Shown here one piece after another: positions 6,001 through 18,650 of a DNA stretch of 24,000 nt. The notes beneath the pieces were generated by a model. The model worked only from the letters and a program-made list of their open reading frames with translations, was not told the origin of the DNA and did no database searches. The position numbers and the translations under genes were made by a program. The stretch's first letter is position 1. Each line of letters begins with the position of its first letter. The stretch lies in contig NZ_CP138956.1 of assembly GCF_047304245.1 (NCBI RefSeq), positions 871,287-895,286 of the forward strand, in the 5' to 3' direction. Source of the stretch: Synechococcus sp. MIT S9452 (GTDB lineage: Bacteria; Cyanobacteriota; Cyanobacteriia; PCC-6307; Cyanobiaceae).

Positions 6001-6853
6001 GCTGCAGGCAACCATTAGTGATCTAGAGGAGGGCGGATTCAATTCCATCGGCAACTTCGAACTCAAGGATGCCCTCAGCCGCCAGTTCCCTGGCCTGAAC
6101 AACGCTTCAAACGGAACTAGCAACGAAATCAGCTTGGCCGTCAACGAATTACAGCAAGCAGTTAATCAACTCGAGAACGGAGGCATCAACTCAATCAGCA
6201 GCGCTGATATTCAATCCGCACTGCGCAATCAGTTCCCTGACATAGAAAACTCTCCTGCTGCAGCCAACGACGCCATGTTTGAGCTACAGGCAACCATTAG
6301 TGATCTAGAGGAGGGCGGATTCAATTCCATCGGCAACTTCGAACTCAAGGATGCCCTCAGCCGCCAGTTCCCTGGCCTGAACAACGCTTCAAACGGAGCT
6401 AGCAACGAAATCAGCTTGGCCGTCAACGAATTACAGCAAGCAGTTAATCAACTCGAGAACGGAGGCATCAACTCAATCAGCAGCGCTGATATTCAATCCG
6501 CACTGCGCAATCAGTTCCCTGACATAGAAAACTCTCCTGCTGCAGCCAACGACGCCATGTTTGAGCTGCAGGCAACCATTAGTGATCTAGAGGAGGGCGG
6601 ATTCAATTCCATCGGCAACTTCGAACTCAAGGATGCCCTCAGCAATCAGTTCCCTGGCCTCGATAACGCTTCAAACGGAACTAGCAACGAAATCAGCTTG
6701 GCCGTCAACGAATTACAGCAAGCAGTTAATCAACTCGAGAACGGAGGCATCAACTCAATCAGCAGCGCTGATATTCAATCCGCACTGCGCAATCAGTTCC
6801 CTGACATAGAAAACTCTCCTGCTGCAGCCAACGACGCCATGTTTGAGCTGTAG
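2..6853 (+). CDS. Giant repetitive secreted cell-surface protein (cadherin/VCBS-type, SwmB-like architecture). The 5' end is outside the window, and this segment ends at an in-frame TAG inside a repeat.
   Basis: The frame is open from nt 2 with no upstream stop, so the ATG at 14 is internal. Seven N-D-A/I/T-P domain junctions occur at about 161, 2059, 2624, 2927, 3238, 3541 and 3901, with ~100-aa spacing where consecutive. Motifs typical of VCBS/cadherin-like adhesin domains are present: DGSWSFNP...Y..LA.G...ITV.Y...D..G......F.ITLTGTNDAP, and EDTAYTI...LL.GFSD.D.D. Three tandem-repeat families are all in this frame. The TAG at 6851-6853 replaces the CAG seen in sister units. Confidence 0.85.
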   Translation, partial: QLQQMVFNPAAEASGQASFSFSVTDSGSIDGDGTIISAPEAISETVNINILNFNDAPILPTTAITLADGTEDTAYNFTAEQLLAGVTDPDITYAPDGVTEISRDVDNLQVTGLTATNGTISFEFTLDSTLSSALSGLYPSLESNQADILSAAELLQTAAEELSNGQAISDSSLFDALSAQIPGLQPDAADINQVQVFLQDFDSALTGGQAFPGSPELITALQTTFPVLQTDFSELTEAQVFLQDFDAALTGGQAFPGSPELITALQTTFPVLQTDFSELTEAQVFLQDFDAALTGGQAFPGSPELITALQTAFPVLQTDFSELTEAQVFLQDFDAALTGGQAFPGSPELITALQTAFPVLQTDFSELTEAQTFLQAADQALTNGQPFSGSPELITALQSTFPVLAGELGEADPAEIEAAQLAIQQAAAELTAGGQISNPDLRDALSVALPAVLMDPADLNSAQQQIQQAAAELTAGGQISNADLRNALSVTLPAVLMDPADLNSAQQQIQQAAAELTAGGQISNPDLRDALSVALPAVLMDPADLNSAQQQIQQAAAELTAGGQISNADLRNALSVALPAVLMDPADLNSAQQQIQQAAAELTAGGQISNADLSNALLSAVPGLVADPAAATTAQQLLADGATALLNTSFTFNPDANFNGIANFNYSITDGTATVSNTVALNVAAVNDAPEATFSLAQITTEGNAILSGTLTSFDVDAVGQAPATGSPANSDTAQSADQNSGENSTGDNTNDLPDEGLVDVFSVLSNEDELSTPAFEPETSSNAVPLETASFSLVSASIKDAEGNVVSDPTTGEPVAVEGLSINADGTWSFDPGDGAYNSLAEGEVQTITVNYQVADAAGLTDGNSFVITLTGTNDAPVATFSEAQTATEDAAAFTGQLTSTDVDISDTVSYSLLGADIAGLTINPDGSWSFNPADPAYQDLAAGATQAITVQYSATDNNGGSAANQFVITLTGTNDIPVVDTNATSNLAVGAEDTAYTISKQQLLAGFSDPDRDAAGVMQALDVIDVTASNGSVTTDSDGDFVFTPTANFHGTVTLSYKVSDGTAEIEASNSFLMAEVNDTPVLTSGVAPVLGDGTEDVQYTINASELLGSFSDVDQDSLNILALSSESGTIRSDQQNPGSYTFTPNQDHNGAVTLNYIVSDGRGGNVEGTATFNLEAVNDAPELTGAPEVLFENIAEDSAGLTIKASDLLANYSDVDGNTLNITSFSIKDPLEGEPNQNAIPLDQRIGSIAEIENSGSVTEYKFIPAANFNGFVRFDYTISDGQASLNQSYALEVTSVNDAPTGADKTIRATAGEFITLSPADFGFSDAIDRDVMQSVKLQLKDSNGNSVLTSDNLEITDDFLSQDEQNNGVKTLSFAQLADGKVSLKAGTISSNTRVQFTVVDDGSETIGSNESASPNTLTLYAEPPASDDVTIINQIRVNQVIDILGETLTTQAEKDEYSNTLNLAAALSDEIRVEFLRQYDVGLFSAEGGAGAFKARRFIQSNISTEGLEGDRNQLEQNISGLGLQSAIEKIDVNTNSIVLTLDPSSWTGKHELISSTSGSGEQLTINDDGSWSLEITPPADVEVPGEVADAEISALLNEIYGDDSWSTDSAKAAEAIALFDSTINQISSGGLNAISDPELLNALQLQIPEFQEAVDAAAQFTSAVETLQTAADSLANDDFESIDNAELRDALLNQFPDLASAGADAAAATAELQAAFDQLAGGDINAVSNFELKDALSNQFPGLNNASNGASNEISLAVNELQQAVNQLENGGINSISSADIQSALRNQFPDIENSPAAANDAMFELQATISDLEEGGFNSIGNFELKDALSRQFPGLNNASNGASNEISLAVNELQQAVNQLENGGINSISSADIQSALRNQFPDIENSPAAANDAMFELQATISDLEEGGFNSIGNFELKDALSNQFPGLDNASNGTSNEISLAVNELQQAVNQLENGGINSISSADIQSALRNQFPDIENSPAAANDAMFELQATISDLEEGGFNSIGNFELKDALSRQFPGLNNASNGTSNEISLAVNELQQAVNQLENGGINSISSADIQSALRNQFPDIENSPAAANDAMFELQATISDLEEGGFNSIGNFELKDALSRQFPGLNNASNGASNEISLAVNELQQAVNQLENGGINSISSADIQSALRNQFPDIENSPAAANDAMFELQATISDLEEGGFNSIGNFELKDALSNQFPGLDNASNGTSNEISLAVNELQQAVNQLENGGINSISSADIQSALRNQFPDIENSPAAANDAMFEL
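584..1243 (+). repeat. In-frame tandem repeat family A. Period is 132 bp (44 aa): four near-identical units plus one diverged unit.
   Basis: The string caggtcttcctccaagactttgat recurs at 584, 716, 848 and 980. The unit peptide is QVFLQDFDAALTGGQAFPGSPELITALQTTFPVLQTDFSELTEA. A diverged fifth unit starts at 1112, and a diverged related module precedes the array at 449-583. Confidence 0.95.
1256..1870 (+). repeat. In-frame tandem repeat family B. Period is 129 bp (43 aa), five units, with alternating variants that give a 258-bp higher-order period.
   Basis: The string atccaacaggccgctgctgaactcactgcaggcgg recurs at 1268, 1397, 1526, 1655 and 1784. The unit peptide is IQQAAAELTAGGQISN(P/A)DLR(D/N)ALSV(A/T)LPAVLMDPADLNSAQQQ. 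The NPDLRD and NADLRN variants alternate. Confidence 0.95.
1920..4290 (+). other. Beta-domain array within the giant protein: cadherin-like / VCBS-type ~100-aa domains joined by NDxP junctions, with DxDxD-type acidic motifs.
   Basis: Junction motifs seen are AAVNDAPEATFS, TGTNDAPVATFS, TGTNDIPVVD, AEVNDTPVLTSG, EAVNDAPELTG and TSVNDAPTGAD. Recurrent patterns include FTP.ANF.G...L.Y.VSDG and SDVDG/QD.LNI. An acidic, Ser-rich insertion lies at about 2150-2400. The domain family is assigned from motif knowledge, not from an HMM run. Confidence 0.7.
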
Positions 6854-7222
6854 GCAACCATTAGTGATCTAGAGGAGGGCGGATTCAATTCCATCGGCAA
6901 CTTTGAACTCAAGGATGCCCTCAGCAATCAGTTCCCTGGCCTGAACAACGCTTCAAACGGAACTAGCAACGAAATCAGCTTGGCCGTCAACGAATTACAG
7001 CAAGCAGTTAATCAACTCGAGAACGGAGGCATCAACTCAATCAGCAGCGCTGATATTCAATCCGCACTGCGCAATCAGTTCCCTGACATAGAAAACTCTC
7101 CTGCTGCAGCCAACGACGCCATGTTTGAGCTGCAGGCAACCATTAGTGATCTAGAGGAGGGCGGATTCAATTCCATCGGCAACTTCGAACTCAAGGATGC
7201 CCTCAGCAATCAGTTCCCTGGC
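5207..7222 (+). repeat. In-frame tandem repeat family C. Period is 282 bp (94 aa, two 47-aa modules): seven nearly identical full units plus a partial eighth.
   Basis: Units start at 5207, 5489, 5771, 6053, 6335, 6617, 6899 and 7181, each beginning aactt(t/c)gaactcaaggatgcc. Differences are limited to a few positions: S(N/R)QFPGL(N/D)NASNG(A/T)S, ccctgac versus cccagac, and gagctg/gagcta/gagctgTag. Diverged copies of the same module flank the array at about 4850-5206 and 7223-7500. Confidence 0.97.
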
Positions 7223-10200
7223 CTAAATAACGATCCCTCTCCAGAAGCCACTAGTGCTCGCGACGCACTGCAGCAAACCATTGATCAGCTTGCAAACGGC
7301 GGCATTAACTCCATCAGCAACGCTGAAATTCAAACTGCCCTGCGCAACCAGTTCCCTGGTCTCGACAGCTCCACAACGGCAGACGATGCCCGTTCAGAGC
7401 TGAATGCAGCGATCGATGAACTCAACACTGGCGGTATTAATGCCATCCAAAGCGATGACTTGCGCGATGCATTGCTTGAGCAGTTCCCTCAACTGGGACT
7501 GAGTTCTCTACAAACAGAAATCACCCAAAAGATGGGAGATGCAGCTCAGAAGCTGGGTACTAGCAGAACAGTGAGACAGTGGGATCTGACACCACCGGCC
7601 GACTCGATTGAAGTCAATTACAGCCTGGAGAGCTCCACCGGCCAATCAACAACACAATCGTTTGTTCTCAACATCAACATTGATAGTGATGCTCAAAGCG
7701 TCACAGGAGTCACGGCACAAACAAACCCAGCTAACGCCAACGAACAAGCAGTTGACCTGACTGTGACTTCCGATGGCTCGTTGACGTTCAGCGGGAGCTT
7801 GGCGACTCCTCCAGAGTCTCTGTTCCTGAACTACAGGGACAAGTCAACCAATAACGATGCCAGTGGCGTTCTTGAACTCAGCGGCGGTACTGACATCAAT
7901 GCCTTTATCCGCGAATTCAAGCTCGATGGCAGCACAAACACTGCTTCTCAGGCCACTGAAAGCTTCCAGTCAGCTGTTTTTGATGCCACTGCCAACACGC
8001 TGACACTCACACTCAATACCGGCGTAAGCAGCGATCTAACGGCACCCATTGCTGATGCCAATGGACTGACCTTTGCTGATGTGACGATCGACACCTCCAG
8101 CGAACTGGACACCAGCTCGCTATCCGTTGGCCAGTTGGTTGCCTACGGAGTTGTTGGTGGTGCTGATGCCAACTGGAGCTTCACCAACGTCACCAAAAAT
8201 GAAAGCAATCAACCTGTGCTTCCGACTGGCTTCCCAGATGCGGATGACACTTCAGGCAAAAAGCTCTACGCAGCGAGTGCCACAAGCACCATCAGCCTGA
8301 GAGATCGCTTCATCGTTACCCAAACTGCAGATGAGGCCACCAGGGTTCAGGCCCTGCAGGATCAAATTAATGCGCTGAATACGACCCTCGATGGCATCAA
8401 CAGCGGTGAGCTGATCCCCAAAACAGATCTACTGGCAGCCAACCCCAACCTCATCGATAGCGATGGCAAGGTTGACCTCACCAACTTGGCTGCGGCTATG
8501 CCCAATAGTGGCAATGAGCTGCTCAAGGGCGCAGACGATCCCAACGTCAATGAAGTTGCTGTGCAGATCGGCACAAACGAAGTTGCCATCGATAAAGAGG
8601 AGCTGGGCGAACTGCTTGCAGTCAAGAAGGAGACCTACAAAGAGGCCCTAACCGCTGGTTTCACCAGTGCAGAAGCAGGTACTGCCGCACAGATCAAGAC
8701 GATTGCAGCAGCGAAGGAATTCGGCGTGAATCTCAGCGCCGATGCCAGTGATACCGAGGCCAAAGCGGCGGCTGAATCATTCGACAAGGTCGCTCAGGAA
8801 TTCCTCAAGGCCGGTGTCACGGTGGCTGATGTGCTCGAGTCCGGCGATACAGAGCTCATCGAGCAAACCAAGCAATTGGTGAGTGACCCCAATGCAGCAG
8901 CAGCTGCTGCTGCTGCACGCGAGAAGCTCGATAACTACGTCTCGCCGTTTGGTGGTGTGGCCACCGTCACAGCACTTGACATCATCAAGCTGGCTACTAA
9001 AGCCGGACGCGCCCTCGATGGCGGCACCACCATCACGGATGTGGATGTTCTTGGTACCGATGATCTCTCGGAGACCAACGCAGCCTTCATTGGTGCTTTG
9101 GATGGAACCATCCAAGGAGCAGAAGGAGAAGGACTTAAGTTCAGCGCCGATAGCAAGGCGATGGTCTTTAAGTTCGAACTCAAAGGTGCAACACAAGCCA
9201 GCAAGACCATCAGCTATCTGGCCAGCGGCGAAGACATCTACTTAAAAGATGGCGCTGGCAACTACATCAAGGATGCCGCCGGGAACAATCAACTTATTGA
9301 AGCTGCTCAATCTGAGAATGCAGGTTTCGGGCCAGATGCCGACGGAAATGCAAAGTACGACAAGTACCTCAAGTACGTGTCTCACTACGACCTACTCCAG
9401 TACGGCGCAACTGAAACCGGGGACAAAGACGAGCAGGGCAACATGCTCTTCAGCTGGGATCTCGCTGCCACAGAAGTCGACCCAGCCAATGCAGGTCAGA
9501 TCAGATCCAAGGTGCGTACCGCTGATGGTGCTGCACTCACCACGCTCACTGGCCAGGTGATTGATCGAGCCGGGTGGTACGACTTCACCCAGCAAGGCGG
9601 TAGCGGCGATGGCGCCCGCTACATCGAAAATGACGCCGGACGAATCGTTGGCGTGGAGTTGAACTTCACGGCCAACAAATTCGGCGACAAGGCACCCGAC
9701 GATGACTTCATCACTGACCCGGGTGCCACCGTTGGCACTGAAACCATTGGTTCAGCTCCGACTCCAACGGCAGCTGCAGCGACGCTGGAACAGCGGCTCG
9801 AGGTTCAAACCGAAACCCAAACCCAACTCCCGCTGCAAAACCAGATCGTGCGGGAGACGCCCAACATCGTCAGCAACGCTCAGCCGCAGGATCCACGCCT
9901 AACCGGTACTGGCATCGGCCTCGATGCCTTCTACGGCGATGACATTGGTGTTGATGACTCCGGCGATGGCATCGCTGCCATGAACATCGGCAGCGGCGTG
10001 GGCCCAGGCGAAGCACTGCAATCCACCTCCAGCGGCCAAGGCGATGGCGAAATGAGCCTCAGCCAAGCTCTCAACACCTTCCTTGGCGAAGGCGAAGGCC
10101 AAGGCACCTCCGACACCCAAGGCCAAGCCAAGGGTCAAGGCGCAGAAGGCCAAGGCGCTGGCACCGGCGGGGATGCCGCCCTTGGGGAAGATCAATCCCC

Positions 10201-10984
10201 CGACACTCAGCGCAAGCGCGGCCTGCTGCTGCAGCCGATGATGAAGGCAGCGGAACAGGCCCAAGAGGCAGCCTCCAGCTCCAAGCTGCTGAAAAACCTG
10301 TCAGAAGGAACCCTGCTGGGCACCAACCTGCTCGATGCCCTGGCACTCGGCGCTGGTGTTCTTTACGCCCTCTATGCGCCCAAGGCGGTGGAGACCAGCC
10401 GCAAGGGTCTGCGCGGCTTGGTGGATCGCTTCCGCAACCAGGTCACCGGTGGCGGCGTCAAGATCCCTGAGAAGCAAGTGCTCTCGGTGTTTGCGATGCG
10501 CATGGCCAACGGCAGCGAACGCCTGGTGGCCGCCAAGGTGGGCATGGGCACCATGGAAGTGGTGGCCCAGCAGGATCTGCCGGCCGATGCTGGTGTCAAC
10601 AAGCCCGGCAGCCAAACCCAGGTCGACTACGCCGTCAAGCAGCTGGTCAACAAGCTGGGCGAGCGCACCAGTGATGTGTTGCTGATTGGTCCGCAACTCA
10701 GCAACCAGCGCTCACTGCTGGAGAACATCGCCGGTGAAACCCGCAACCTAGAAACCAGCAGCTTGGTGGAACGCATCAAGCAATGCAGCAGTGAGGAGAT
10801 CAGCCAACTGCGCGCTTGGCTCGATAAGCCCTCCAGCACACCTCCAGAAAGCAGCCCCGTCTATCAGCAGATGATGGGCCGCATGGAGAGCTACGGCGGT
10901 GTCTTCAGCCAAGAGCAAGCCTCGATGGCGTCGCTGATTGAGCTCAGCATCGCCCTGGGCTGGAGCGGAAGTGAGGCCGGCTAA
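6980..10984 (+). CDS. Continuation of the same giant surface protein, in the same frame as 2-6853. It covers the C-terminal unique region, a G/Q/E-rich low-complexity linker, one hydrophobic helix and a ~210-aa C-terminal domain.
   Basis: 14 and 6980 are both 2 mod 3. Translation directly after the TAG, from 6854, continues the repeat (ATISDLEEGGFNSIGNFELKDALSNQFPGL...). 6980 is only the first start-like codon (TTG) picked by the ORF caller and lies inside a repeat unit. The ORF ends at TAA 10982-10984. Confidence 0.8.
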   Translation: MAVNELQQAVNQLENGGINSISSADIQSALRNQFPDIENSPAAANDAMFELQATISDLEEGGFNSIGNFELKDALSNQFPGLNNDPSPEATSARDALQQTIDQLANGGINSISNAEIQTALRNQFPGLDSSTTADDARSELNAAIDELNTGGINAIQSDDLRDALLEQFPQLGLSSLQTEITQKMGDAAQKLGTSRTVRQWDLTPPADSIEVNYSLESSTGQSTTQSFVLNINIDSDAQSVTGVTAQTNPANANEQAVDLTVTSDGSLTFSGSLATPPESLFLNYRDKSTNNDASGVLELSGGTDINAFIREFKLDGSTNTASQATESFQSAVFDATANTLTLTLNTGVSSDLTAPIADANGLTFADVTIDTSSELDTSSLSVGQLVAYGVVGGADANWSFTNVTKNESNQPVLPTGFPDADDTSGKKLYAASATSTISLRDRFIVTQTADEATRVQALQDQINALNTTLDGINSGELIPKTDLLAANPNLIDSDGKVDLTNLAAAMPNSGNELLKGADDPNVNEVAVQIGTNEVAIDKEELGELLAVKKETYKEALTAGFTSAEAGTAAQIKTIAAAKEFGVNLSADASDTEAKAAAESFDKVAQEFLKAGVTVADVLESGDTELIEQTKQLVSDPNAAAAAAAAREKLDNYVSPFGGVATVTALDIIKLATKAGRALDGGTTITDVDVLGTDDLSETNAAFIGALDGTIQGAEGEGLKFSADSKAMVFKFELKGATQASKTISYLASGEDIYLKDGAGNYIKDAAGNNQLIEAAQSENAGFGPDADGNAKYDKYLKYVSHYDLLQYGATETGDKDEQGNMLFSWDLAATEVDPANAGQIRSKVRTADGAALTTLTGQVIDRAGWYDFTQQGGSGDGARYIENDAGRIVGVELNFTANKFGDKAPDDDFITDPGATVGTETIGSAPTPTAAAATLEQRLEVQTETQTQLPLQNQIVRETPNIVSNAQPQDPRLTGTGIGLDAFYGDDIGVDDSGDGIAAMNIGSGVGPGEALQSTSSGQGDGEMSLSQALNTFLGEGEGQGTSDTQGQAKGQGAEGQGAGTGGDAALGEDQSPDTQRKRGLLLQPMMKAAEQAQEAASSSKLLKNLSEGTLLGTNLLDALALGAGVLYALYAPKAVETSRKGLRGLVDRFRNQVTGGGVKIPEKQVLSVFAMRMANGSERLVAAKVGMGTMEVVAQQDLPADAGVNKPGSQTQVDYAVKQLVNKLGERTSDVLLIGPQLSNQRSLLENIAGETRNLETSSLVERIKQCSSEEISQLRAWLDKPSSTPPESSPVYQQMMGRMESYGGVFSQEQASMASLIELSIALGWSGSEAG

Positions 10985-10997
10985 CCCCCGGCCTCAC
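10971..10997. terminator. GC-rich stem-loop spanning the giant gene's stop codon, between convergent transcription units. It is a candidate bidirectional terminator or RNA-stability hairpin.
   Basis: A perfect 10-bp inverted repeat, gtgaggccgg (10971-10980) and ccggcctcac (10988-10997), flanks the 7-nt loop ctaaccc, which contains the TAA stop. No U-tract follows on either strand, so the intrinsic-terminator call is weak. Confidence 0.35.
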
Positions 10998-11051
10998 CCC
11001 ACCAGGGGCACTGGCGATGTATTGAAACCAAGCAAGGCTCAGTAGGTCGCT

Positions 11052-11543
11052 TTAAGCGGCCTGCTCGTCAGGTTTGATCGGGCAGTGCTCAACAATCAAA
11101 TCCATGATCAGCGTGGTGCGATTGGGCTGCGCCTGAATCGCAAAAGCTTCCTTCTCGATATCCCACTTACGACTGGAGTAATTGCGATAGAGGGTGTTGA
11201 ACACAGCCCGATCGACTGCATAACCAACCGGAGGCCGATAGCCAAGCGGCTTCATCTTGCCGGTCTTGCAGGCTTGAACGGCATGCACCGCTTCATGCAC
11301 AAACGTTTGCGGCATGATCCCCATCGCTTCAGTGATCGGATGCACCCAAATGGTTTTTTTCTTGGAATTCGCCATCCCATAGATGCCCTTGCGGGGCGGG
11401 GCCTGCAGCAAGACTGTCCAACCGCGTTGCTCTAAAGCATCAGCGATCGGCTGCAAATTCGCAGGAAACGCCAAGGCCGGCTTGAATGGCGCCAGCAGCG
11501 CCAAGGCCAAAGACGAACGGATCGCAAAGCTGATTCGGCTCAT
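11052..11543 (-). CDS. Small exported protein with an HExxH motif (putative zinc-metallopeptidase-like, ~163 aa). It is the last gene of the stator-like block.
   Basis: The preferred start is the ATG at 11543, which forms an ATGA overlap with the upstream gene's TGA (plus strand 11540-11543 reads tcat). The N-terminus MSRISFAIRSSLALALLAPFKPALA-FP looks like a signal peptide. It has a single FVHEAVHAVQ (HExxH) motif, with Glu residues ~40 aa downstream (EKEAF). The longer ORF reaching 11612 would overlap the upstream gene by 73 nt. Confidence 0.6.
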   Translation of the reverse strand: MSRISFAIRSSLALALLAPFKPALAFPANLQPIADALEQRGWTVLLQAPPRKGIYGMANSKKKTIWVHPITEAMGIMPQTFVHEAVHAVQACKTGKMKPLGYRPPVGYAVDRAVFNTLYRNYSSRKWDIEKEAFAIQAQPNRTTLIMDLIVEHCPIKPDEQAA

Positions 11544-12214
11544 TGGACCATCAAGGCGCGGCCAGAATTGCCCCAAAAATAGATCGGATCTCCGGCATAC
11601 CAAGGCTCCCAACCCAAAGGAACCTCATGCTGAATCGCTTTGGCTTTGATCTTGCGATATTGATCAAATCCTGTTTTCTCCAAAACAATGAACAGGGCTT
11701 CTTTGTTTTCAGACAGCCCCTTCATGAAGGCATCCAGCCGCTCAGGGTTGTTCTTGATCTCCGCCGCGGAAATCGTGGGCTGACCCGCCGCGCGAATCAA
11801 GCCATTGGCATGGGAGATCTCCATGCTCACTTGGCCGATGTTTTCATTGCGGGCCCAGCCATCAAGCTGAGCGTTACAGAGCTTTTGCTCAGCCGGCAGC
11901 AACTGCTGACAGCGGCGCACTTCTTCTCCGCGCTCACGGTCGAGCTCTGTCATGCGAGTGACGGCAGGCTGCAGGTCCCATAAACCATTGGCCGAGACCT
12001 GCACCAGATGAAACGAGCGGGTGCTCTTTTTGCTCATCGGCGCTTGGATATTCAAGGCGCTATTAGCCGCAATCACCCCGGTGAGCGAACCCACCAACGC
12101 CATCACACCCACAACGTTGGAGAGGATGTCGAGCAGGCCATCGGTGGACCCCTCAGGCACCCAACCTTTGCGCTTGCGGCGGTTCTTCAACAGCAGATCA
12201 CTGAGGCGCGGCAT
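11540..12214 (-). CDS. ExbD/TolR-like single-pass membrane protein (224 aa) with a conserved Asp at the cytoplasmic edge of the TM helix and an enlarged periplasmic domain.
   Basis: It has a basic N-terminus (KNRRKRK) followed by GLLDILSNVVGVMALVGSLTGVIA. This aligns by eye with the ExbD segment PFIDVMLVLLIIFMV, placing Asp29 at the ExbD Asp25 position. Next come LNIQAP (resembling i.v.LP) and a C-terminal motif, ALFIVLEKTGFDQYRKIKAKAIQHEVPLGWEP, shared with the neighbouring paralogue. The start codon overlaps the upstream stop (TAATG, 12212-12216). Confidence 0.6.
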   Translation of the reverse strand: MPRLSDLLLKNRRKRKGWVPEGSTDGLLDILSNVVGVMALVGSLTGVIAANSALNIQAPMSKKSTRSFHLVQVSANGLWDLQPAVTRMTELDRERGEEVRRCQQLLPAEQKLCNAQLDGWARNENIGQVSMEISHANGLIRAAGQPTISAAEIKNNPERLDAFMKGLSENKEALFIVLEKTGFDQYRKIKAKAIQHEVPLGWEPWYAGDPIYFWGNSGRALMVQ

Positions 12215-12678
12215 TAGTTCATGCCTCCGTTGGCATCAGGAACAATGACCTTGAGATCAGGTTCCAGCGGCTCATAGCCCACCATGATCTTGCGTAATTC
12301 CGCCTTGGAGCGAATTGCTTCAAAATCGACATAGCCCTCCGGGCGCACACCTATCACCAAATATTGCTCGGAATTACGGGACGCAATGCGATCCAAAAAT
12401 GCTTCCACCGCATCATCACCCGTTCGCACGGTGCGGCGTTGCTGGGGGCCAATCAGCTCCAGTTCGCCTTCGCCATTGACCAAGATGTAATTGGCCTCAC
12501 GGCCTTGGCCCGCGCCTTCGGCTGGCAACAACTGAATCGCTTGCACGCCAGGGCGAATCTGCAGCGCCGAGATCACCATCATCAAGGCCTGCACACCAAT
12601 GGTGGCGGCCATGATGTTCATGAACGAGAACAGGCTGACGCCTGGTGCTGTTGATGAGCGGCGGTGTCGACGTGCCAT
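12214..12678 (-). CDS. ExbD/TolR-like single-pass membrane protein (154 aa). It is a paralogue of the 224-aa protein but has Asn in place of the TM Asp.
   Basis: It has a basic N-terminus (MARRHRRSS), then the TM segment VSLFSFMNIMAATIGVQALMMVISAL with Asn21 at the Asp position. VQAIQLLPAEG follows, then a periplasmic domain ending YLVIGVRPEGYVDFEAIRSKAELRKIMVGYEP. Size and layout match ExbD/TolR. It sits 18 bp downstream of the MotA/ExbB-like gene. Confidence 0.6.
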   Translation of the reverse strand: MARRHRRSSTAPGVSLFSFMNIMAATIGVQALMMVISALQIRPGVQAIQLLPAEGAGQGREANYILVNGEGELELIGPQQRRTVRTGDDAVEAFLDRIASRNSEQYLVIGVRPEGYVDFEAIRSKAELRKIMVGYEPLEPDLKVIVPDANGGMN

Positions 12679-12696
12679 GGATGCGCTGGCCCTCGC

Positions 12697-14034
12697 TTAC
12701 CAGAACCAACGACGGCGGCGCGGTCGTTCAATTTGCTGCAGCTGACCATTAAGTTGTTCGATCGCTTGGCGCAACTCAACCAAGGCCTGGAGCTGATCCA
12801 TCTGCTCCACTTCGGTAAAGGTGCGACCTGAAGCGCGCTCCAAACGAGTGAGCACAGGATCGAGATCTTTCATGGTTTGGCCAAGATCACCGGCCATCGA
12901 ATCCATGCTGCCGCGGATCACATCGGCTTGATCTTGCAAGCTCAAACGTGCTTCGGCGATTCCTTCCACCGAATCACGCACCAAATTGGTGAGGGGCGCC
13001 AATTTCTCCACTGTGGCCTCGGTGAGGCGTTCGGCATAGGCCTGAGCCGGCTCCACCAACACCGATGGATCGGGCAGATGCTTTTCAAATGCGTCATTGA
13101 TCATGATCCCCAGCTCTTCACTGGAGAGCCCGGTGAGTGATTCCAAAGCACTTTCACTGGCGGGCTTGCCGGCTTTGCCGCCACCGCCGCCAAAGCCGCT
13201 GGGCTCCATCGCACCGATTTCACCTTCACCCAATGGGCTCAGGGCCATCACCGCTTCACGGATGAAGCCGTCGATCTGATTGAGCAGACGTTCCTCGCGG
13301 CGCTCCACCGAATTAAGCGGGAAGGCCATGATCACCGAGATCACCAGGGCCAGATAGGTGGTGTCGAATGCCGTACCCAGACCACTGGTCACCTGGGTCA
13401 GGCCATTTTTGAGGCCCTCAACGTTGTCGGCATTGCCGAGCACCTCATCAAAGGAGCCCACAGCACTGGACATCCCGAGCACAGTGCCGATGAAGCCCAA
13501 CAGGGGAATCGCCCACAGCAACACCTTCGGCAGGCTGTAGCTCTGCTGGACAGCCAACTCAAACAGATCGGCATCGTTATCCGCCGAACGCTCCAGCTGG
13601 AAGGCAGAACCTGTTTCGGTCCAAACATTGAGCAAGCGCAACACGCGCTTGCCCACCAGCGATCTGGATTGCTGGCTTTGGTTGGTGATCGCATCAAGAT
13701 CCCCCGAGCGGATCAACGGCGTGAGCGCTAGATCAAATTGCTTGGTTTTACGGCTCTGCTGCTGCAGCAACTGCCATTTGCTGAAGATAAAAACGGCCAG
13801 CATGCCGCCCATCACCAAACAGACCACCTGGGTGGGGCCGCGCTGGTGCAAAAACTCGTGAAACGGAAACCCAGGCGGACTGGTCAGCAACCACAGCACC
13901 AAACCAATCACGCCACCGGGGACAGCCCAACGAATCAGCTTGGGATTGAGGTCATCCCCCTCACCAAGACTGACCGGTGGAGCCGAAGCACTCCCCATAC
14001 CCGGCAGGTTCATCGCTGATGGGCTGGCAATCAT
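12697..14034 (-). CDS. MotA/TolQ/ExbB-family ion-channel (stator-type) protein, 445 aa, with four TM helices and a ~200-aa C-terminal coiled-coil extension.
   Basis: TM helices are at about aa 45-62, 78-96, 171-195 and 222-245. The family-typical TM3/TM4 signature is present: AIPLLGFIGTVLGMSSAVGSF ... GLTQVTSGLGTAFDTTYLALVISVIMAFPLN. A long loop lies between TM2 and TM3, as in MotA. The C-terminal tail has a Gly-rich linker (GFGGGGGKAGKP) and heptad-like helices, and ends ERPRRRRWFW. Alternative starts at Met8 or Met13 are possible. Confidence 0.75.
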   Translation of the reverse strand: MIASPSAMNLPGMGSASAPPVSLGEGDDLNPKLIRWAVPGGVIGLVLWLLTSPPGFPFHEFLHQRGPTQVVCLVMGGMLAVFIFSKWQLLQQQSRKTKQFDLALTPLIRSGDLDAITNQSQQSRSLVGKRVLRLLNVWTETGSAFQLERSADNDADLFELAVQQSYSLPKVLLWAIPLLGFIGTVLGMSSAVGSFDEVLGNADNVEGLKNGLTQVTSGLGTAFDTTYLALVISVIMAFPLNSVERREERLLNQIDGFIREAVMALSPLGEGEIGAMEPSGFGGGGGKAGKPASESALESLTGLSSEELGIMINDAFEKHLPDPSVLVEPAQAYAERLTEATVEKLAPLTNLVRDSVEGIAEARLSLQDQADVIRGSMDSMAGDLGQTMKDLDPVLTRLERASGRTFTEVEQMDQLQALVELRQAIEQLNGQLQQIERPRRRRWFW

Positions 14035-14074
14035 GACGCGTAGATGTGCTGGTTAATCAAGTCGTTGCTATCGA

Positions 14075-14359
14075 TCAAGCCGACTTCGCGGCATCCCATT
14101 CCTTCCACTCCACTTCCACTTCACCAACGCCTTGGCTGGTCGGCGGCGGAATGCGGTTGAGCATGTCGTTGGGTAAGCCCAAACGCTCGAATACCACCTT
14201 GCGTTGATCGGTAGGCATCGAGGCAAAGGAGCGCACCACCTCGCGCACCTTGAACTCGCTGTAAACCAAATTCATCAGCTCTTCCTGGTCAGCAGGATCC
14301 AACTGCTGAAACCAAGCGAGGAATTTGGGCAGGCGTTGACTGAGATCAGAACTGGTCAT
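14075..14359 (-). CDS. Small soluble hypothetical protein (94 aa) lying between the T1SS genes and the stator-like genes.
   Basis: It is an intact ORF in the same orientation as its neighbours, 40 bp upstream of the MotA-like gene. There is no TM segment or signal peptide and no motif I recognise. Composition is helical and acidic, with a PPP-containing tail (RIPPPTSQGVGEVEVEWKEW). Confidence 0.5.
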   Translation of the reverse strand: MTSSDLSQRLPKFLAWFQQLDPADQEELMNLVYSEFKVREVVRSFASMPTDQRKVVFERLGLPNDMLNRIPPPTSQGVGEVEVEWKEWDAAKSA

Positions 14360-14447
14360 TGGAGAGGCGAAAGCAATTCGGAATCAACAAGAAGAAGAGG
14401 ATCAGCTCATCCCGAAGGCGGCGGCAACGACAGGCGGCGGATCACGA

Positions 14448-15629
14448 TCATTTGCTCGAGCGAATACTGCGCAGGGAATCCAACGCCTTCTGGATGGCAT
14501 CGGTGAGCAGCGAGATCACGCGCTTATCACGCAGCACCAAGTTGGCTTGAACGCTTTGACCTGGGCTGACTTTGTATTCCCTGCCATCACGCTCCAGGAA
14601 CTGCTGATCCAGTCCGATATAGGCGGGGAACCTGGCTTGAGGTGAGGTTTGATCCGGCGGAAGGGGCAAGGTGCCCACCGACTTCAACTCACCCTCGATG
14701 GCGCCAAATTGGGTGTAGGGGAAGGCATCCACCCGAATCTGGGCAGGCATGCCTGGCTCGAGGAAACCAACATCGCGGTTGGTGATGAACACCTTGGCCT
14801 CCAGCGCCCCGCCAGGAACCACCTTCACTAGGGTTTCTCCCGCTGAGGCGGCATAGCCCGGGCTCGAGGGCACCATGCCGTAAACAACGCCATTGACTGG
14901 CGACACCAGCACTTCCTTGCTGCGGGTGTCATTGACTTCCACCAGCTGCCGCTCCAGATCAGCCAGCTCGCCAAGGGACTCCTGCTTCATCTTGAGCAGC
15001 TGAGCCTGCACTTCCTGCAAGTTGGCTTTGGCCTGGGCTATTTGCGATTGCAGTTGTTCAATGCTGTTTTTTTGCTTCAGCACCTGCATCCGCTGAATCC
15101 CGCCTTGAGCAGCCAAGGGAACGATGGCGGCATAGATCTCACGCTCAGTAGCCAAGGCCCTTGAAAGGCCATCCATCCGCTCCTGCAAGCTTTGCTCCCG
15201 CGCGCGGAATGATCGGGTTTCTTCGGTAAAGCGATTTTCCTCCAGCTCGTATTGCCGCTCCAATGTTTCTTTGCGCTTTTCCGACACTTCGGTGTCCATG
15301 CGAATCAGCGCTTGGCCGGCCACGACCTCTTGGCCCTCAGTCACCAAAATCTCTTTGACCATGCCGGCAAACGGCGCTTTCAAAGGGCGTTCAGCGCCCA
15401 ACGGCTGGAGTTCACCAACAGCCAAGACCACCTCATCAATTTTGGCAAAACAGGCAAAAACAAAGGCAAAACTGGCGCTGCCAATGATCGTCCAGGCCAG
15501 GGCGCGGCTCCAGACCGGAGCAGGCCGCAAACGCACTTCCTGGGGATTCAGGGGGCGAACAGCCAAGCTTGACGGCTTCGCCAGGGCGGAGGATTTTTTG
15601 TCAGCTTTTTGGGGGAGGTTTTTATTCAT
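14448..15629 (-). CDS. HlyD-family membrane fusion protein (type I secretion periplasmic adaptor), 393 aa.
   Basis: It has an N-terminal cytoplasmic stretch and a single TM segment (WSRALAWTIIGSASFAFVFACFA). A lipoyl-like half-motif follows (LKAPFAGMVKEILVTEGQEVVAGQALIRMD), then a long coiled-coil (EKRKETLERQYELEE...QSQIAQAKANLQEVQAQLLKMK) and the second half-motif LVSPVNGVVYG. The beta-barrel motif VDAFPYTQFGAIEGELKSV is also present. The start lies 9 bp after the ABC gene's stop. Confidence 0.9.
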   Translation of the reverse strand: MNKNLPQKADKKSSALAKPSSLAVRPLNPQEVRLRPAPVWSRALAWTIIGSASFAFVFACFAKIDEVVLAVGELQPLGAERPLKAPFAGMVKEILVTEGQEVVAGQALIRMDTEVSEKRKETLERQYELEENRFTEETRSFRAREQSLQERMDGLSRALATEREIYAAIVPLAAQGGIQRMQVLKQKNSIEQLQSQIAQAKANLQEVQAQLLKMKQESLGELADLERQLVEVNDTRSKEVLVSPVNGVVYGMVPSSPGYAASAGETLVKVVPGGALEAKVFITNRDVGFLEPGMPAQIRVDAFPYTQFGAIEGELKSVGTLPLPPDQTSPQARFPAYIGLDQQFLERDGREYKVSPGQSVQANLVLRDKRVISLLTDAIQKALDSLRSIRSSK

Positions 15630-15638
15630 TGTTTTGGC

Positions 15639-18600
15639 TTAAACCTCCTGCTGGTGATAGAGGGTGGCGTAGCGACCATCCAGCTCCATGAGGTCTTCAT
15701 GGGTGCCCTGTTCAACCAAAGCCCCTTGATCCATCACCAAGATGTGATCAGCAGCCTTCAAGGAAGCAAGCCGGTGGGTAATAAAGAACACCGTGCTTCC
15801 TTTGTAGAGCTGCATGAGATTAGCAGTTAATCGCCGTTCAGTATCAACATCCAAGGCACTGGTGGCTTCATCCAACACCAACAATCTTGGTTTGCGAATA
15901 ATCATCCGCGCAATCGCCAAACGTTGGCGTTGGCCGCCGCTCAAGCCAGCACCACGTTCACCCACCGAGCTGCTGTAACCCGCTGGCATGGCCTCGATAA
16001 ATTCATGAGCGCAGGCCACCTGACCGGCCAAAACAATTTCTTCAAAGCCAGCATCTGGCCTGGTTAAAGCGATGTTGGACATCACGGTTCCGTCAAAAAG
16101 CAAGCTGTCCTGGGGCACAACGCCGATCTGAGCGCGCAACGAATAGAGATCCACCTTGCTGATGTCGTTGCCATCAATCCGAAGACTTCCCTCTGCTGGT
16201 TCATACAAACGGGTGAGCAGTTTTAACATCGTGCTTTTGCCAGAGCCACTACTTCCCACCACGCCAACAAAGGATCCAGCCGGAATCTTGAAGCCAACAT
16301 TCATCAGCTGCATCTTGCCAGTTTCACCAAAGCGGAAGCTGACGCCCGAATACTCCACTTCACCAACAATGGGGGGGATCGGAGGTTTTTGATCACCCGT
16401 AAGTTCCAGCTCCTGGGGATGATCAACAATGTCAGCCAAGCGCTCCAATGACAGAGCGGTTTCTTGGAAGTTCTGCCACAGGTTGGCCATGCGCAGCAGC
16501 GGGCTCGTCACGTAGCCAGCCAAGATGCGGAAGGCGATGAGTTGGCCCAAGGTCATCTCGCCTTTGAGCACCAAAGACGCACCCACCCAGAGCACCAATA
16601 GACCAGACAGTTGCTCTAAAAACTGACTCGCTGATGCTGCAGCTGTGCTGGTAACGACATTCTTAAAGCCCGATTGAATTTGGCCGCCGTAGAGCTGCTG
16701 CCAACGCCAGCGGCTATGCACCTCCATGCTTTGGCCTTTGATGGTTTCCATCCCGCCAAGGGTTTCCACCAAGTGGCTTTGCACTTTGGAATTGGCCTCA
16801 GCCTGCTGCCTGAGCTGCTTACGGATCACAGGAGCAGAGAAGAACGTGACGCCCACAAACAGAGGCACCACCGCCAAAGCCCAGAAGGTGAGCTGCACGG
16901 AATACAGCAGCATCACAGCGATATAAATCACCGCAAATACCGCATCCAAAATCACCGTTAAGGCGGTGCCTGTGAGGAAACGGCGAATTTTCTCGAGTTC
17001 ATTCAGCCGGCTGCTGACTTCACCCACCGGTCGATCGGCGAAATACCCCAGCGGCAACCGCAGCAGGTGATCGATGATCGTGGAACCCAAGGAAATATCA
17101 ATGCGGTTGGTGGTGTCAGAGAACAGATAGGTGCGCAACGACGACAGCACCGCTTGCGCTAACCCCATGCCCACCAGCAAGGTGCCGAGCACATTGAGGG
17201 TGCTGACATTGCCCTGGCTGATCACCGCATCGATGATTTGCTGAATCAGCAAGGGATTCAGCAAACCAAAAAGCTGCACAAAAAAGCTGGCCAGCAGCAC
17301 TTGAATCAGCACCGACTTGTACTGCTTCAACGCCGGCACGAACCAGCTGATGCCAAAGCGCTTGGTGGGCGTTTGTTGGCTGCGCTCAATGCAAAGCACC
17401 GTCAACAGCCCCTCCTCATCGCGCTCCTCCAAGGAGGCAATCGGGCGCAGGCCTTGCTCAGCGATGGGATCACCCACCAACACCTGCCCGCCTTGATCGC
17501 TATCCCACAGGATCATTGGGCCATAGGGGCCCATGGTGATCGCCGGAAATTGCAGGCGGGCCAACTGCTGATCATCAACATTCAGCTGGGAAGCCCGCAG
17601 GCCCATCACATCAGCAATAGCCGCCATCTGCAGCAAGCTGATGCCGGAACCGTCTTCATTGCGGTTGAGCTGATCCTCCAAGATCCGCTGCAACACGTCT
17701 TTGCGGAAGGGCAAATCGAACTGGCGGGCCAACATCCGCAACACAGCCATGGGTATCCCCACGGGCCCTTCACCTTTGAGGTGGGGGAAGCTGCCGTCAT
17801 CCGCTAGACGGCCATACCAATCCTCCAGAGCATCTTGCTGACGCTCCACCACCACGATGGCGGAGGAGCTTTCCTGCCAATCAGGCTCCAGCAGCTCAGC
17901 TTCGGTGCGAACCGGCTCGATTTCGCCACTATCGGGGGAGAGCACCATCACCGATGGGCTTTCCATCGGCGGTGTGGCAGCCGATTTAGCCAACAACCTT
18001 GCCGGCACTTGGCCGCGAATGTTGAGCTTGGCTGGTCCCAGCAGCTCTTCTCCGGGCGCAGCACCAGCAATGTTGCTGCTGCTCACCAGCCAAGGCCCCC
18101 AATCGGAGCCGAACTGGTGCTCGCCGGGAGGCAGCAACAGCACATGCTGCTGATCAGAGGCTTCCTCGAGTTGATTGCTAGCCCAATCCCGCAGGCTGCG
18201 CCGATCAGGGGTGCGCGGCGCGGGGCTATCGGCCGCCACCGCATACAACTCCTCCAACGATGGCTGGGCCAAAGCCAGTTGCAGACTTGGATATTCCCGC
18301 ACCACCTCCAAAAAGGTTTGCTGCGGGATCAGCCACAACTGGCTGGGCTGGGAGGCCGCTAAGGCTTGGCCGGCCACACCCCGCAGCAAACCCACATCAC
18401 CGGCACTATCACCAGATCCAAGCCGGCGCAGCGTGAAAGGCACATCCTGCTCATCAAGAGCCAACAAACGCATCTGGCCTTGGGCGACCAAGGCCACACC
18501 AGGCGGCAGGCAGTCGTAGTCGTAAAGCTTTTGCCCAGGCCGGAGCTGAAGCGCCTGCAGGGATTCGGCCAACTTGGCCTGGGCAGCTTGCGGCAAGCGC

Positions 18601-18650
18601 GAGTACGGAGCCCACGAGGCAATGAGCTTGAGAGCCAGCGTGAGCTGCAT
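15639..18650 (-). CDS. T1SS-type ABC exporter (1003 aa): N-terminal cNMP-binding-like domain, Cys-less C39-like domain, six-TM ABC membrane domain and a nucleotide-binding domain.
   Basis: NBD motifs are Walker A GSSGSGKST, Q-loop VVPQDSLLF, signature LSGGQRQR, Walker B LLVLDEATSALD and H-loop FFITHRL. The cNMP-like fold spans aa ~20-135 (LRPGQKLY...VALVAQGQMRLL...LRRLGSGDSAGDVGLLRG...LWLIPQQTF). The C39-like region spans aa ~285-425 (GIPMAVLRMLARQFDLP...SLLQMAAIADVMGL...FPAI...VLVGDP), with Pro at the catalytic Cys position and no H-[FY]-V-V. Confidence 0.92.
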   Translation of the reverse strand: MQLTLALKLIASWAPYSRLPQAAQAKLAESLQALQLRPGQKLYDYDCLPPGVALVAQGQMRLLALDEQDVPFTLRRLGSGDSAGDVGLLRGVAGQALAASQPSQLWLIPQQTFLEVVREYPSLQLALAQPSLEELYAVAADSPAPRTPDRRSLRDWASNQLEEASDQQHVLLLPPGEHQFGSDWGPWLVSSSNIAGAAPGEELLGPAKLNIRGQVPARLLAKSAATPPMESPSVMVLSPDSGEIEPVRTEAELLEPDWQESSSAIVVVERQQDALEDWYGRLADDGSFPHLKGEGPVGIPMAVLRMLARQFDLPFRKDVLQRILEDQLNRNEDGSGISLLQMAAIADVMGLRASQLNVDDQQLARLQFPAITMGPYGPMILWDSDQGGQVLVGDPIAEQGLRPIASLEERDEEGLLTVLCIERSQQTPTKRFGISWFVPALKQYKSVLIQVLLASFFVQLFGLLNPLLIQQIIDAVISQGNVSTLNVLGTLLVGMGLAQAVLSSLRTYLFSDTTNRIDISLGSTIIDHLLRLPLGYFADRPVGEVSSRLNELEKIRRFLTGTALTVILDAVFAVIYIAVMLLYSVQLTFWALAVVPLFVGVTFFSAPVIRKQLRQQAEANSKVQSHLVETLGGMETIKGQSMEVHSRWRWQQLYGGQIQSGFKNVVTSTAAASASQFLEQLSGLLVLWVGASLVLKGEMTLGQLIAFRILAGYVTSPLLRMANLWQNFQETALSLERLADIVDHPQELELTGDQKPPIPPIVGEVEYSGVSFRFGETGKMQLMNVGFKIPAGSFVGVVGSSGSGKSTMLKLLTRLYEPAEGSLRIDGNDISKVDLYSLRAQIGVVPQDSLLFDGTVMSNIALTRPDAGFEEIVLAGQVACAHEFIEAMPAGYSSSVGERGAGLSGGQRQRLAIARMIIRKPRLLVLDEATSALDVDTERRLTANLMQLYKGSTVFFITHRLASLKAADHILVMDQGALVEQGTHEDLMELDGRYATLYHQQEV

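Follow-up and report, generated by a model that had tools for sequence, protein, structure and literature searches.

In a 24,000-nucleotide stretch of the Synechococcus sp. MIT S9452 genome (contig NZ_CP138956.1, positions 871,287 to 895,286; called the window here), the gene at 12697..14034 encodes a 445-residue A subunit of the tailed MotA/ExbB family. The open reading frame has 445 codons plus a stop codon and no internal stops; like every feature given below with window coordinates, it lies on the minus strand. Residues 246-445 (12697-13299 with the stop codon) form a long tail behind the last transmembrane (TM) helix. We consider this tail to be a genuine, selected cytoplasmic extension of the pore-forming A subunit of a 5:2-type ion motor, acting as a coupling or anchoring arm, and we give this reading a probability of about 0.5. 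Ion motors of the 5:2 type drive flagella, Ton and Tol transport, gliding, type IX secretion and Zorya defence. The first-pass annotation of this DNA had described a tail of about 200 residues after TM4 ending in RPRRRRWFW, and all of the strings that it quoted were located in the translated open reading frame. It had also labelled the tail an output or coupling element, a role that we likewise infer.

In the mechanism that we propose, the A subunit would work with two paralogous single-pass B-like subunits, one of which has an Asp in its TM helix. The tail would be the cytoplasmic coupling or anchoring arm of the motor, with its rod as a spacer, probably associating with the other four rods of the pentamer, and its tip as a contact point for the anionic inner membrane face or an acidic partner. 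In the picocyanobacterial clade, the motor would have been incorporated into the type I secretion operon of a giant cadherin-like surface protein, parallel to SiiAB.

The tail is conserved in orthologues. A search of 5.8 billion proteins retrieved 483 relatives, and 118 of the best 120 (54-95% identical) were at least 400 residues long. Conservation was measured as the mean top-residue frequency in an alignment of 23 orthologues at 57-89% identity. It was 0.91 in TM3-TM4, 0.84 in the tail core (residues 303-378), 0.73 in the cytoplasmic loop, 0.60 in the distal tail and 0.34 in the Gly-rich linker; the conservation of the tail core was nearly that of the channel helices. A W-x-W or WW motif was present within the last 14 residues in 101 of the 118 full-length orthologues. 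The tail was therefore kept across orthologues, and only the linker was variable and disordered.

A long tail was also found far beyond these orthologues. Searching 1.84 billion cluster representatives exhaustively, without a profile, yielded 2889 matches at E<=1e-3, 1293 of them at E<=1e-10. Among the 149 nearest representatives, the TM4 motif was located in 138, and in these the tail after TM4 had a median length of 204 residues (interquartile range 155-255, maximum 742) and was at least 100 residues long in 121. Relatives occur in cyanobacteria (Anabaena, Tolypothrix, Crocosphaera, Cyanothece, Xenococcus, Pleurocapsa, Thermosynechococcus and Synechocystis), in Planctomycetota (Gimesia, Kolteria and Pirellulales), and in Verrucomicrobiota, Kiritimatiellia, Lentisphaeria and Myxococcota. 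Judged from these sequences, the long tail is the rule in a large, widespread and uncharacterised subfamily (Cyanobacteria, Planctomycetota, Verrucomicrobiota).

Both ends of the structured tail recur in this wider family. The neck motif HLPxPxxL(V/I)EPAxxYA is found repeatedly in cyanobacterial and Verrucomicrobiota/Kiritimatiellia members; the aligned neck Pro is shared by 36 of 51 distant members and is missing from most planctomycete ones. The tip consists of PRR and a short hydrophobic run and recurs across phyla: in most cyanobacteria and in Verrucomicrobiota it reads KPRRITLVE and then continues with acidic residues, planctomycetes have KQVVIE..PRRRWGLFG (one member ends in KQVQIERRKRGWFW), and the window protein has QQIERPRRRRWFW. 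The rod between the conserved neck and tip varies in length, and this pattern fits a spacer role. The first-pass annotation had called the tail unusual; it is no oddity of this module, given the median tail length of the nearest representatives and the family-wide neck and PRR tip. Three unplaced members that cluster with the planctomycete sequences in the tree described below (P0152, P0164 and P0177) have a zinc-ribbon-like segment with two pairs of Cys-x-x-Cys at the N-terminus, which a low-complexity linker joins to the channel domain.

One alternative is that the tail has no function of its own and is a tolerated, largely disordered appendage, or that it lies in the periplasm. The Gly-rich linker and the last ten residues are indeed predicted to be disordered. 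The conservation of the core, the recurrence of the neck and tip motifs and the 121 long-tailed relatives among 138 speak against an idle appendage, and the family topology against a periplasmic C-terminus, so that we regard this alternative as highly improbable. By TolQ/ExbB/MotA family topology and charge pattern, the tail would be cytoplasmic, as had been proposed from the sequence at first pass. The TM3-TM4 loop is acidic (one K/R vs. four D/E) and basic residues follow TM2 and TM4, which together with the family topology would place the C-terminus inside the cell.

The membrane part has the features of the superfamily. Pfam PF01618 (MotA_ExbB) matched residues 143-254 with 33.9 bits against a cut-off of 22.9 (E 3.1e-8), and a scan of the complete 2.40-Mb genome returned the tailed channel gene as its only PF01618 match. 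Hydropathy gave four hydrophobic segments (residues 33-51, 66-84, 171-189 and 222-240). TM3, the periplasmic loop and TM4 make up the conserved channel hairpin (residues 171-240, 13315..13524, PLLGFIGTVLGM ... GLGTAFDTT; hydropathy and conservation), which holds most of the invariant columns of a 73-sequence family alignment. An AlphaFold2 (AF2) model was built on the same alignment (mean predicted local distance difference test score, pLDDT, 81.9). The last TM helix ends at about residue 240, and the AF2 helix 205-265 extends beyond it with high pLDDT. This gives a cytoplasmic continuation of the TM4 helix (residues 241-268, 13231..13314, ERREERLLNQIDGFIREAVMALSP). E247, L250, L251 and D255 are invariant or nearly so family-wide.

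Comparison of the AF2 model with the PDB (Foldseek) gave a top 50 made up of TolQ, ExbB, MotA and ZorA chains. The best matches were TolQ/ExbB chains (target-normalised TM-score 0.58-0.60, probability 1.00, E only ~4e-3), and MotA and ZorA ranked below them. The first ~250 residues resembled TolQ (9avi, 8vlw) and ExbB (6tyi, 5sv0) with target-normalised TM-scores of 0.55-0.60. Searching the PDB by sequence, with the family profile and with the channel segment, found no related solved structure, and residue-by-residue equivalence with ExbB or TolQ is therefore not claimed. From the profile match above cut-off and the TolQ/ExbB-like predicted fold, the protein belongs to the MotA/TolQ/ExbB superfamily. 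The MotA_ExbB domain and the order of the genes (an A gene followed by genes of single-pass partners) are further likenesses to TolQ/ExbB. The differences are an extra N-terminal hydrophobic helix in the MIT S9452 protein, which has four segments, and the tail itself: the top TolQ/ExbB chains have 214-230 residues, cover only the first ~250 residues of the protein and have no counterpart of the tail, which was correctly described at first pass as long compared with ExbB and TolQ.

The tail can be divided into four parts. The first is a Gly-rich flexible tether (residues 269-302, 13129..13230; pLDDT 41-55, conservation 0.34), which includes an insertion of ~25 residues specific to the picocyanobacterial clade; residues 271-292 are disordered in the AF2 model (pLDDT 41-46), and the Gly-rich string EPSGFGGGGGKAGKP corresponds to residues 277-291. 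The second is the conserved tail core (residues 303-378, 12901..13128; conservation and AF2), made up of the neck motif AFEKHLPDPSVLVEPAQAYAE and the first half of a long amphipathic helix. The Pro-rich neck motif of the tail reads HLPDPSVLVEPA. AF2 predicts short helices at residues 295-319 and then a single unbroken helix at residues 323-403 (81 residues, pLDDT ~80-85). The distal tail (residues 379-436, 12727..12900; AF2) comprises the rest of this helix, a hinge (residues 404-409) and a second helix (residues 410-435, 26 residues). The predicted rod would thus contain ~80 and 26 helical residues, roughly 12 nm and 4 nm if straight. The last part is the cationic and aromatic tip RPRRRRWFW (residues 437-445, 12700..12726; composition and orthologues), and the last ten residues (436-445) are unstructured in the model.

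The helical stretches quoted at first pass correspond to residues 339-399 and 411-436. Hydrophobic periodicity of 3.5-3.6 residues exceeded that of shuffled sequences across residues 330-400 (z up to 7.1), and the strongest 3.5-residue periodicity fell in the distal tail (z up to 7.1). Judged by eye, the hydrophobic positions follow a 3-4 spacing with some 4-4 stutters. Pro347, Pro393 and Gly358 are invariant or nearly so in the orthologue alignment, and because of these residues the rod is not a textbook coiled coil, although 'heptad-like' is a fair label for it. The helices and periodicity proposed by the first-pass annotation were borne out, while a regular coiled coil was not, with Pro347 and Pro393 invariant and several Gly in the rod. 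A complex prediction with four copies of residues 296-445 and the family alignment scored 0.01 (pLDDT ~43), which speaks neither for nor against bundling.

The A gene is followed by genes for two single-pass B-like partners. The first (154 residues, 12214..12678) has no Asp in its TM helix and is encoded immediately downstream of the A gene in most of the cyanobacterial loci inspected. The second (224 residues, 11540..12214) has an invariant TM Asp and two invariant Cys in its family alignment, and its gene is the second one downstream of the A gene, both in the window and in the majority of the cyanobacterial loci inspected. The two proteins are paralogues (hhalign probability 99.4%, E 2.5e-21) and are built alike: a basic N-terminus, a single TM helix, and a C-terminal domain that closes with G(Y/W)EP. 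In the 224-residue family, D28, C101 and C112 are invariant, the Cys pair lies in an inserted subdomain, and D24 is present in at least 90% of the sequences; D24 and D28 fall inside the predicted TM helix (residues 24-49) or at its start. The invariant TM Asp is restricted to this family and is not found in the 154-residue one. An adjacent single-pass partner with a protonatable TM Asp, as in 5:2 motors, is thus present in the form of the 224-residue protein, and its periplasmic domain was modelled by AF2 with pLDDT >90.

Matches of the partners to known B subunits were poor. Compared with the PDB by fold, the 224-residue model had no convincing match (TolR 5by4 ranked 8th, probability 0.51), searches of the PDB with the partner profiles did not find ExbD, TolR or MotB, and no recognisable peptidoglycan-binding (OmpA-like) domain was found by Pfam in the B-like partners. 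As these matches are weak or missing, the assignment to 5:2 motors rests on the A subunit and the gene architecture. The three-gene unit has the look of a 5:2-type motor whose axle is a heterodimer. AglR-AglQ-AglS, the Myxococcus gliding motor, likewise combines one A-type subunit with two different B-type ones. No sequence or fold relation to GldLM or AglRQS was detected beyond the superfamily (a GldL cluster had a TM-score of 0.26 to a related model).

The three-gene unit is not tied to secretion genes. The A gene followed by homologues of the 154- and 224-residue proteins was found without nearby secretion genes in ~50 cyanobacterial loci, and planctomycete and myxococcal loci have longer, divergent versions of the partners downstream of the A gene. 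The surroundings of some other units were recorded. In one cyanobacterial genome, a stand-alone unit (L017 in G071, 5173-13980) is flanked by a DUF3800 gene, a TnpB/Cas12f-like fragment and a gene for a restriction endonuclease of the GmrSD type, in a region that resembles a defence island. On a Myxococcota contig (L093, 5758-11064), a gene for a UvrD-like helicase (763 residues) comes directly after the A gene and two long B-like genes. In Kiritimatiellia and Verrucomicrobiota loci (L047, 7281-9257, and L095, 7473-9617), a protein of ~660-710 residues is encoded between the A gene and the pair of B-like genes, and one of these intervening proteins has a weak NHL-repeat match.

The neighbourhood is different in the picocyanobacterial clade. 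In a maximum-likelihood tree built from 73 channel-core sequences, three groups were seen: Planctomycetota/Verrucomicrobiota, general cyanobacterial, and the picocyanobacterial clade with its sister lineages. The picocyanobacterial clade was monophyletic (22 sequences, support 95/95). A string of nine genes was intact in six independent loci. The six are the window itself, two reference genomes and three contigs from metagenomes, and the deepest branches are among them. Its order is PpiC-like, ATP-binding cassette (ABC) exporter, HlyD, 94-residue protein, A subunit, 154-residue protein, 224-residue protein, a gene of ~150-190 codons and a convergent giant gene, which encodes a cadherin-like surface protein in the six loci. 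In the window, the type I secretion pump (14448..18650; Pfam and NCBIfam) consists of the HlyD adaptor (14448-15629) and the ABC exporter (15639-18650), and the exporter has cNMP-binding-like and C39-like N-terminal domains. The 94-residue cytoplasmic protein (14075..14359) is encoded between the HlyD and A genes in all six loci and is restricted to the secretion-linked clade. It has an invariant C-terminal EVEWxEW, the end E-V-E-W-(K/Q)-E-W being present in all eight aligned orthologues, and it had no match in Pfam, NCBIfam or PADLOC. The clade is rare among reference genomes, with three clear orthologues in 200 genomes of the family and none in 7 other species of the same genus; in metagenomes it is common.

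In the sister lineages, neither an exporter nor a 94-residue gene was seen adjoining the channel gene on the contigs recovered, some of which were short. Sister lineage P0124/P0125/P0127 has PRRVxLxE-type tips, and the nearer sister P0122 has a different one (PRGPWARLRR...). The spacing from D255 to the neck Pro (P321) had a median of 60 residues in the clade vs. 36 in 51 other members, and the Gly-rich stretch is therefore a clade-specific insertion of ~25 residues. The change of the tip from PRR(I/V)xLVE-acidic to RRRRWxW took place at the same stage as this growth of the tether. Three changes found only in the clade fall on one branch: linkage to the secretion, 94-residue and giant genes, the tether insertion and the RRRRWxW tip. 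Being a single event, their joint appearance is only suggestive of a new contact.

Two further observations were made in this region. Marine metatranscriptome contigs (runs X1, X2, X3 and X6) that are 85-95% identical to window positions 11000-15700 span parts of the 94-residue gene, the HlyD gene and the channel gene, the tail among them; this is only a hint of expression, the contigs coming from relatives and DNA carry-over being possible. Downstream of the three-gene unit, the listed TTG start of a small HExxH gene (11052-11612) overlaps the end of the 224-residue gene by 73 bases, and because of this overlap its true start is probably further downstream. A gene of ~150-190 codons occupies the position of this HExxH gene in all six syntenic loci.

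The linkage to secretion recalls SiiAB, a MotAB/ExbBD-like proton-channel pair within the Salmonella pathogenicity island 4 (SPI-4) type I secretion operon of the giant adhesin SiiE. The SiiE secretion system depends for its function on proton flow through SiiAB, in a way that is unknown, and the TM Asp of the B-like subunit is critical (bioRxiv 10.1101/641415, citing Wille et al. 2014). The likeness is one of gene context: in the six loci, MotAB-like genes lie within a type I secretion operon beside a giant-protein gene. SiiAB differs in having only one B-type subunit and an OmpA-like peptidoglycan-binding domain in SiiA, and no long tail of SiiB is reported in that preprint; the three-gene unit described here is, in addition, widespread without secretion genes.

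The tail might then dock onto clade-specific partners, the tip or rod binding the cNMP-like or C39-like domains of the exporter or the 94-residue protein, so that ion flow would gate or assist the export of the giant protein. The 94-residue gene is always placed between the HlyD and channel genes, its invariant acidic E-V-E-W-x-E-W would complement RRRRWxW, the tip and tether changed on the branch on which the secretion linkage arose, and SiiAB is required for SPI-4 type I secretion function (bioRxiv 10.1101/641415). We nevertheless consider docking of this kind unlikely. The tips of the six syntenic loci are RRRRWFW, SRWRRFWRQG, GPGWWQRLGALLR, KGFSLKRVISQFKIR, RRRWFGRG and RQRRWPWH, and a specific peptide pairing should not combine so variable a tip with an invariant 94-residue motif; the pairing of EVEWxEW with RRRRWxW, attractive by charge, is weakened accordingly. 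The conserved core of the tail is also older than the secretion linkage. Since it predates the linkage and is kept in ~50 loci without exporter, the exporter domains, the ParA-like protein and the 94-residue protein, which had been put forward at first pass as candidate partners of the tail, cannot explain the core; they could at most explain the clade-specific tip and linker. A complex prediction with the 430 N-terminal residues of the exporter, the 94-residue protein and the tail scored 0.00 and is neither for nor against contact.

The composition of the tip points in another direction. In orthologues, the last 14 residues are 28% Arg and 14% Trp and have a net charge of +3.9. Elsewhere the tail lacks Trp and carries a net charge of about -16, so that an acidic rod on a variable tether ends in a cationic aromatic tip. 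One orthologue has the amphipathic basic segment KGFSLKRVISQFKIR in place of the usual tip. Composition that is kept without register would be expected of a membrane-interface or loose electrostatic contact rather than of a specific docking peptide, and the sequences suit the former.

Such a contact would also agree with a GldLM-like reaction arm, in which the tips hold the five tails to the membrane or to a static complex, the A ring is kept from turning, ion flow turns the B-like subunits and the output acts in the periplasm on HlyD or the giant protein. GldL is a 5:2-type A subunit tied to a secretion system and to the movement of a giant surface adhesin (PMC8986121). The Arg- and Trp-rich tip with its loosely kept composition resembles a membrane-interface anchor, and so does the basic segment that replaces it in one orthologue; the periplasmic domains of the B-like proteins are confidently folded and show no recognisable peptidoglycan-binding domain, and both the giant protein and the machinery that secretes it act outside the cytoplasm. 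A rod with a net charge of about -16 should be repelled by an anionic membrane, however, and the common cyanobacterial tip, PRRITLVE followed by acidic residues, is unlike a membrane anchor. We find a reaction arm rather unlikely. GldM itself is a long periplasmic protein, and the partners here are small.

The first-pass annotation had also drawn a parallel with ZorA, and part of it stood. ZorA5B2 structures are available (PDB 8qyd, 8qyk and 8vvn), and the ZorA tail is a 70-nm pentameric coiled coil, every truncation of which abolishes Zorya defence (PMC11946911). Like ZorA, the MIT S9452 protein is a MotA/ExbB-superfamily A subunit with a long alpha-helical cytoplasmic tail, variable in length, after the last TM helix. 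The continuity of the coiled coil from the membrane domain is probably not shared: the ZorA tail continues from that domain, whereas AF2 puts the ~150 structured residues of the MIT S9452 tail on a disordered tether. This tail is also 5 to 6 times shorter, the membrane fold is nearer TolQ/ExbB, and two different B-like paralogues are found in place of a ZorB homodimer with a peptidoglycan-binding domain.

If the tails formed a ZorA-like signalling shaft, a pentameric coiled coil would relay motor activation to soluble proteins, possibly for phage defence in the stand-alone units. ZorA models were the best NCBIfam and PADLOC matches of the protein, the spacing in the long helix is heptad-like, the ZorA tail is essential for Zorya defence, and stand-alone units were found near GmrSD, DUF3800 and TnpB-like genes in one case and before a UvrD-like helicase gene in another. 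These matches were far below threshold (NCBIfam antiphage_ZorA_2, 20.6 bits vs. a cut-off of 100; PADLOC ZorA, E 2.9e-5 or weaker, at most 21 bits) and partly reflect coiled-coil composition. No PADLOC match was found among the window neighbours, and no conserved effector gene (ZorC, ZorD or other) lies beside the stand-alone units examined. Membership of Zorya was rejected on thresholds, partners and effectors. With the disordered tether, the shorter tail, the TolQ/ExbB-like membrane fold and the sub-threshold matches, a rigid ZorA-like shaft was down-weighted and is, in our view, quite unlikely.

Several points weigh against the coupling or anchoring arm of a 5:2 motor that we prefer. A disordered tether transmits torque poorly, which weakens the picture of a rotating shaft, and a rod with invariant Pro347 and Pro393 and several Gly would be unusual in a regular coiled coil. 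Bundling of the tails and contacts of the tip were supported by none of the complex predictions, which were uninformative either way. The B-like partners are unlike ExbD, TolR and MotB by sequence and weakly alike by fold. Finally, the link between the change of the tip and the secretion genes is weak because it depends on a single evolutionary event.

A role of the Ton type was also considered. No match to PF02472 (ExbD) or PF03544 (TonB_C) was found at E<=0.01 in the complete MIT S9452 genome, while control genomes gave matches, and a Ton-type role is therefore unlikely in this strain. In Synechocystis sp. PCC 6803, sll0477-sll0478-sll0479 are annotated as 'ExbB-like, hypothetical, hypothetical' and are induced 6.7-fold under iron stress as a single transcript, TU3083 (PMC4195498); the same genes have been named exbB/exbD3/exbD4 (PMC8634477). 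An ExbB-like gene with two unannotated small genes is the pattern seen here, and the comparison is by gene pattern only. Members of the family were found in the Synechocystis metagenome-assembled genome JTS-AC55 and in strain LKSZ1, with no PCC 6803 record among them. By contrast with sll0477-0479, a role in iron uptake is unlikely in MIT S9452, as TonB_C is not matched.

The job of a motor of this superfamily is set by what its A or B subunits couple to. The family described here is a large one that comprises thousands of sequence clusters from Cyanobacteria, Planctomycetota, Verrucomicrobiota and other groups, and it combines a conserved cytoplasmic arm and what looks like a heterodimeric axle with no assigned function. 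In abundant marine and freshwater picocyanobacteria, it would be the only motor of the superfamily, wired to the export of a giant surface protein. Giant surface proteins include the protein required for the unexplained swimming of marine Synechococcus. It is conceivable, if very doubtful, that the tailed A subunit and its two partners are the long-sought ion-driven engine for handling or moving giant surface proteins of the SwmB type in these bacteria, with the tethered acidic rod and its cationic tip as a cytoplasmic reaction arm or track coupling; the sole MotA/ExbB-family gene of the genome and the constant exporter and giant-gene neighbourhood in the clade are compatible with this. If true, the tail would be a defining part of a new type of non-flagellar motor for motility or secretion. 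Precise handles for finding what this motor is connected to are offered by the neck motif, the rod, the tip and the clade-specific tether.

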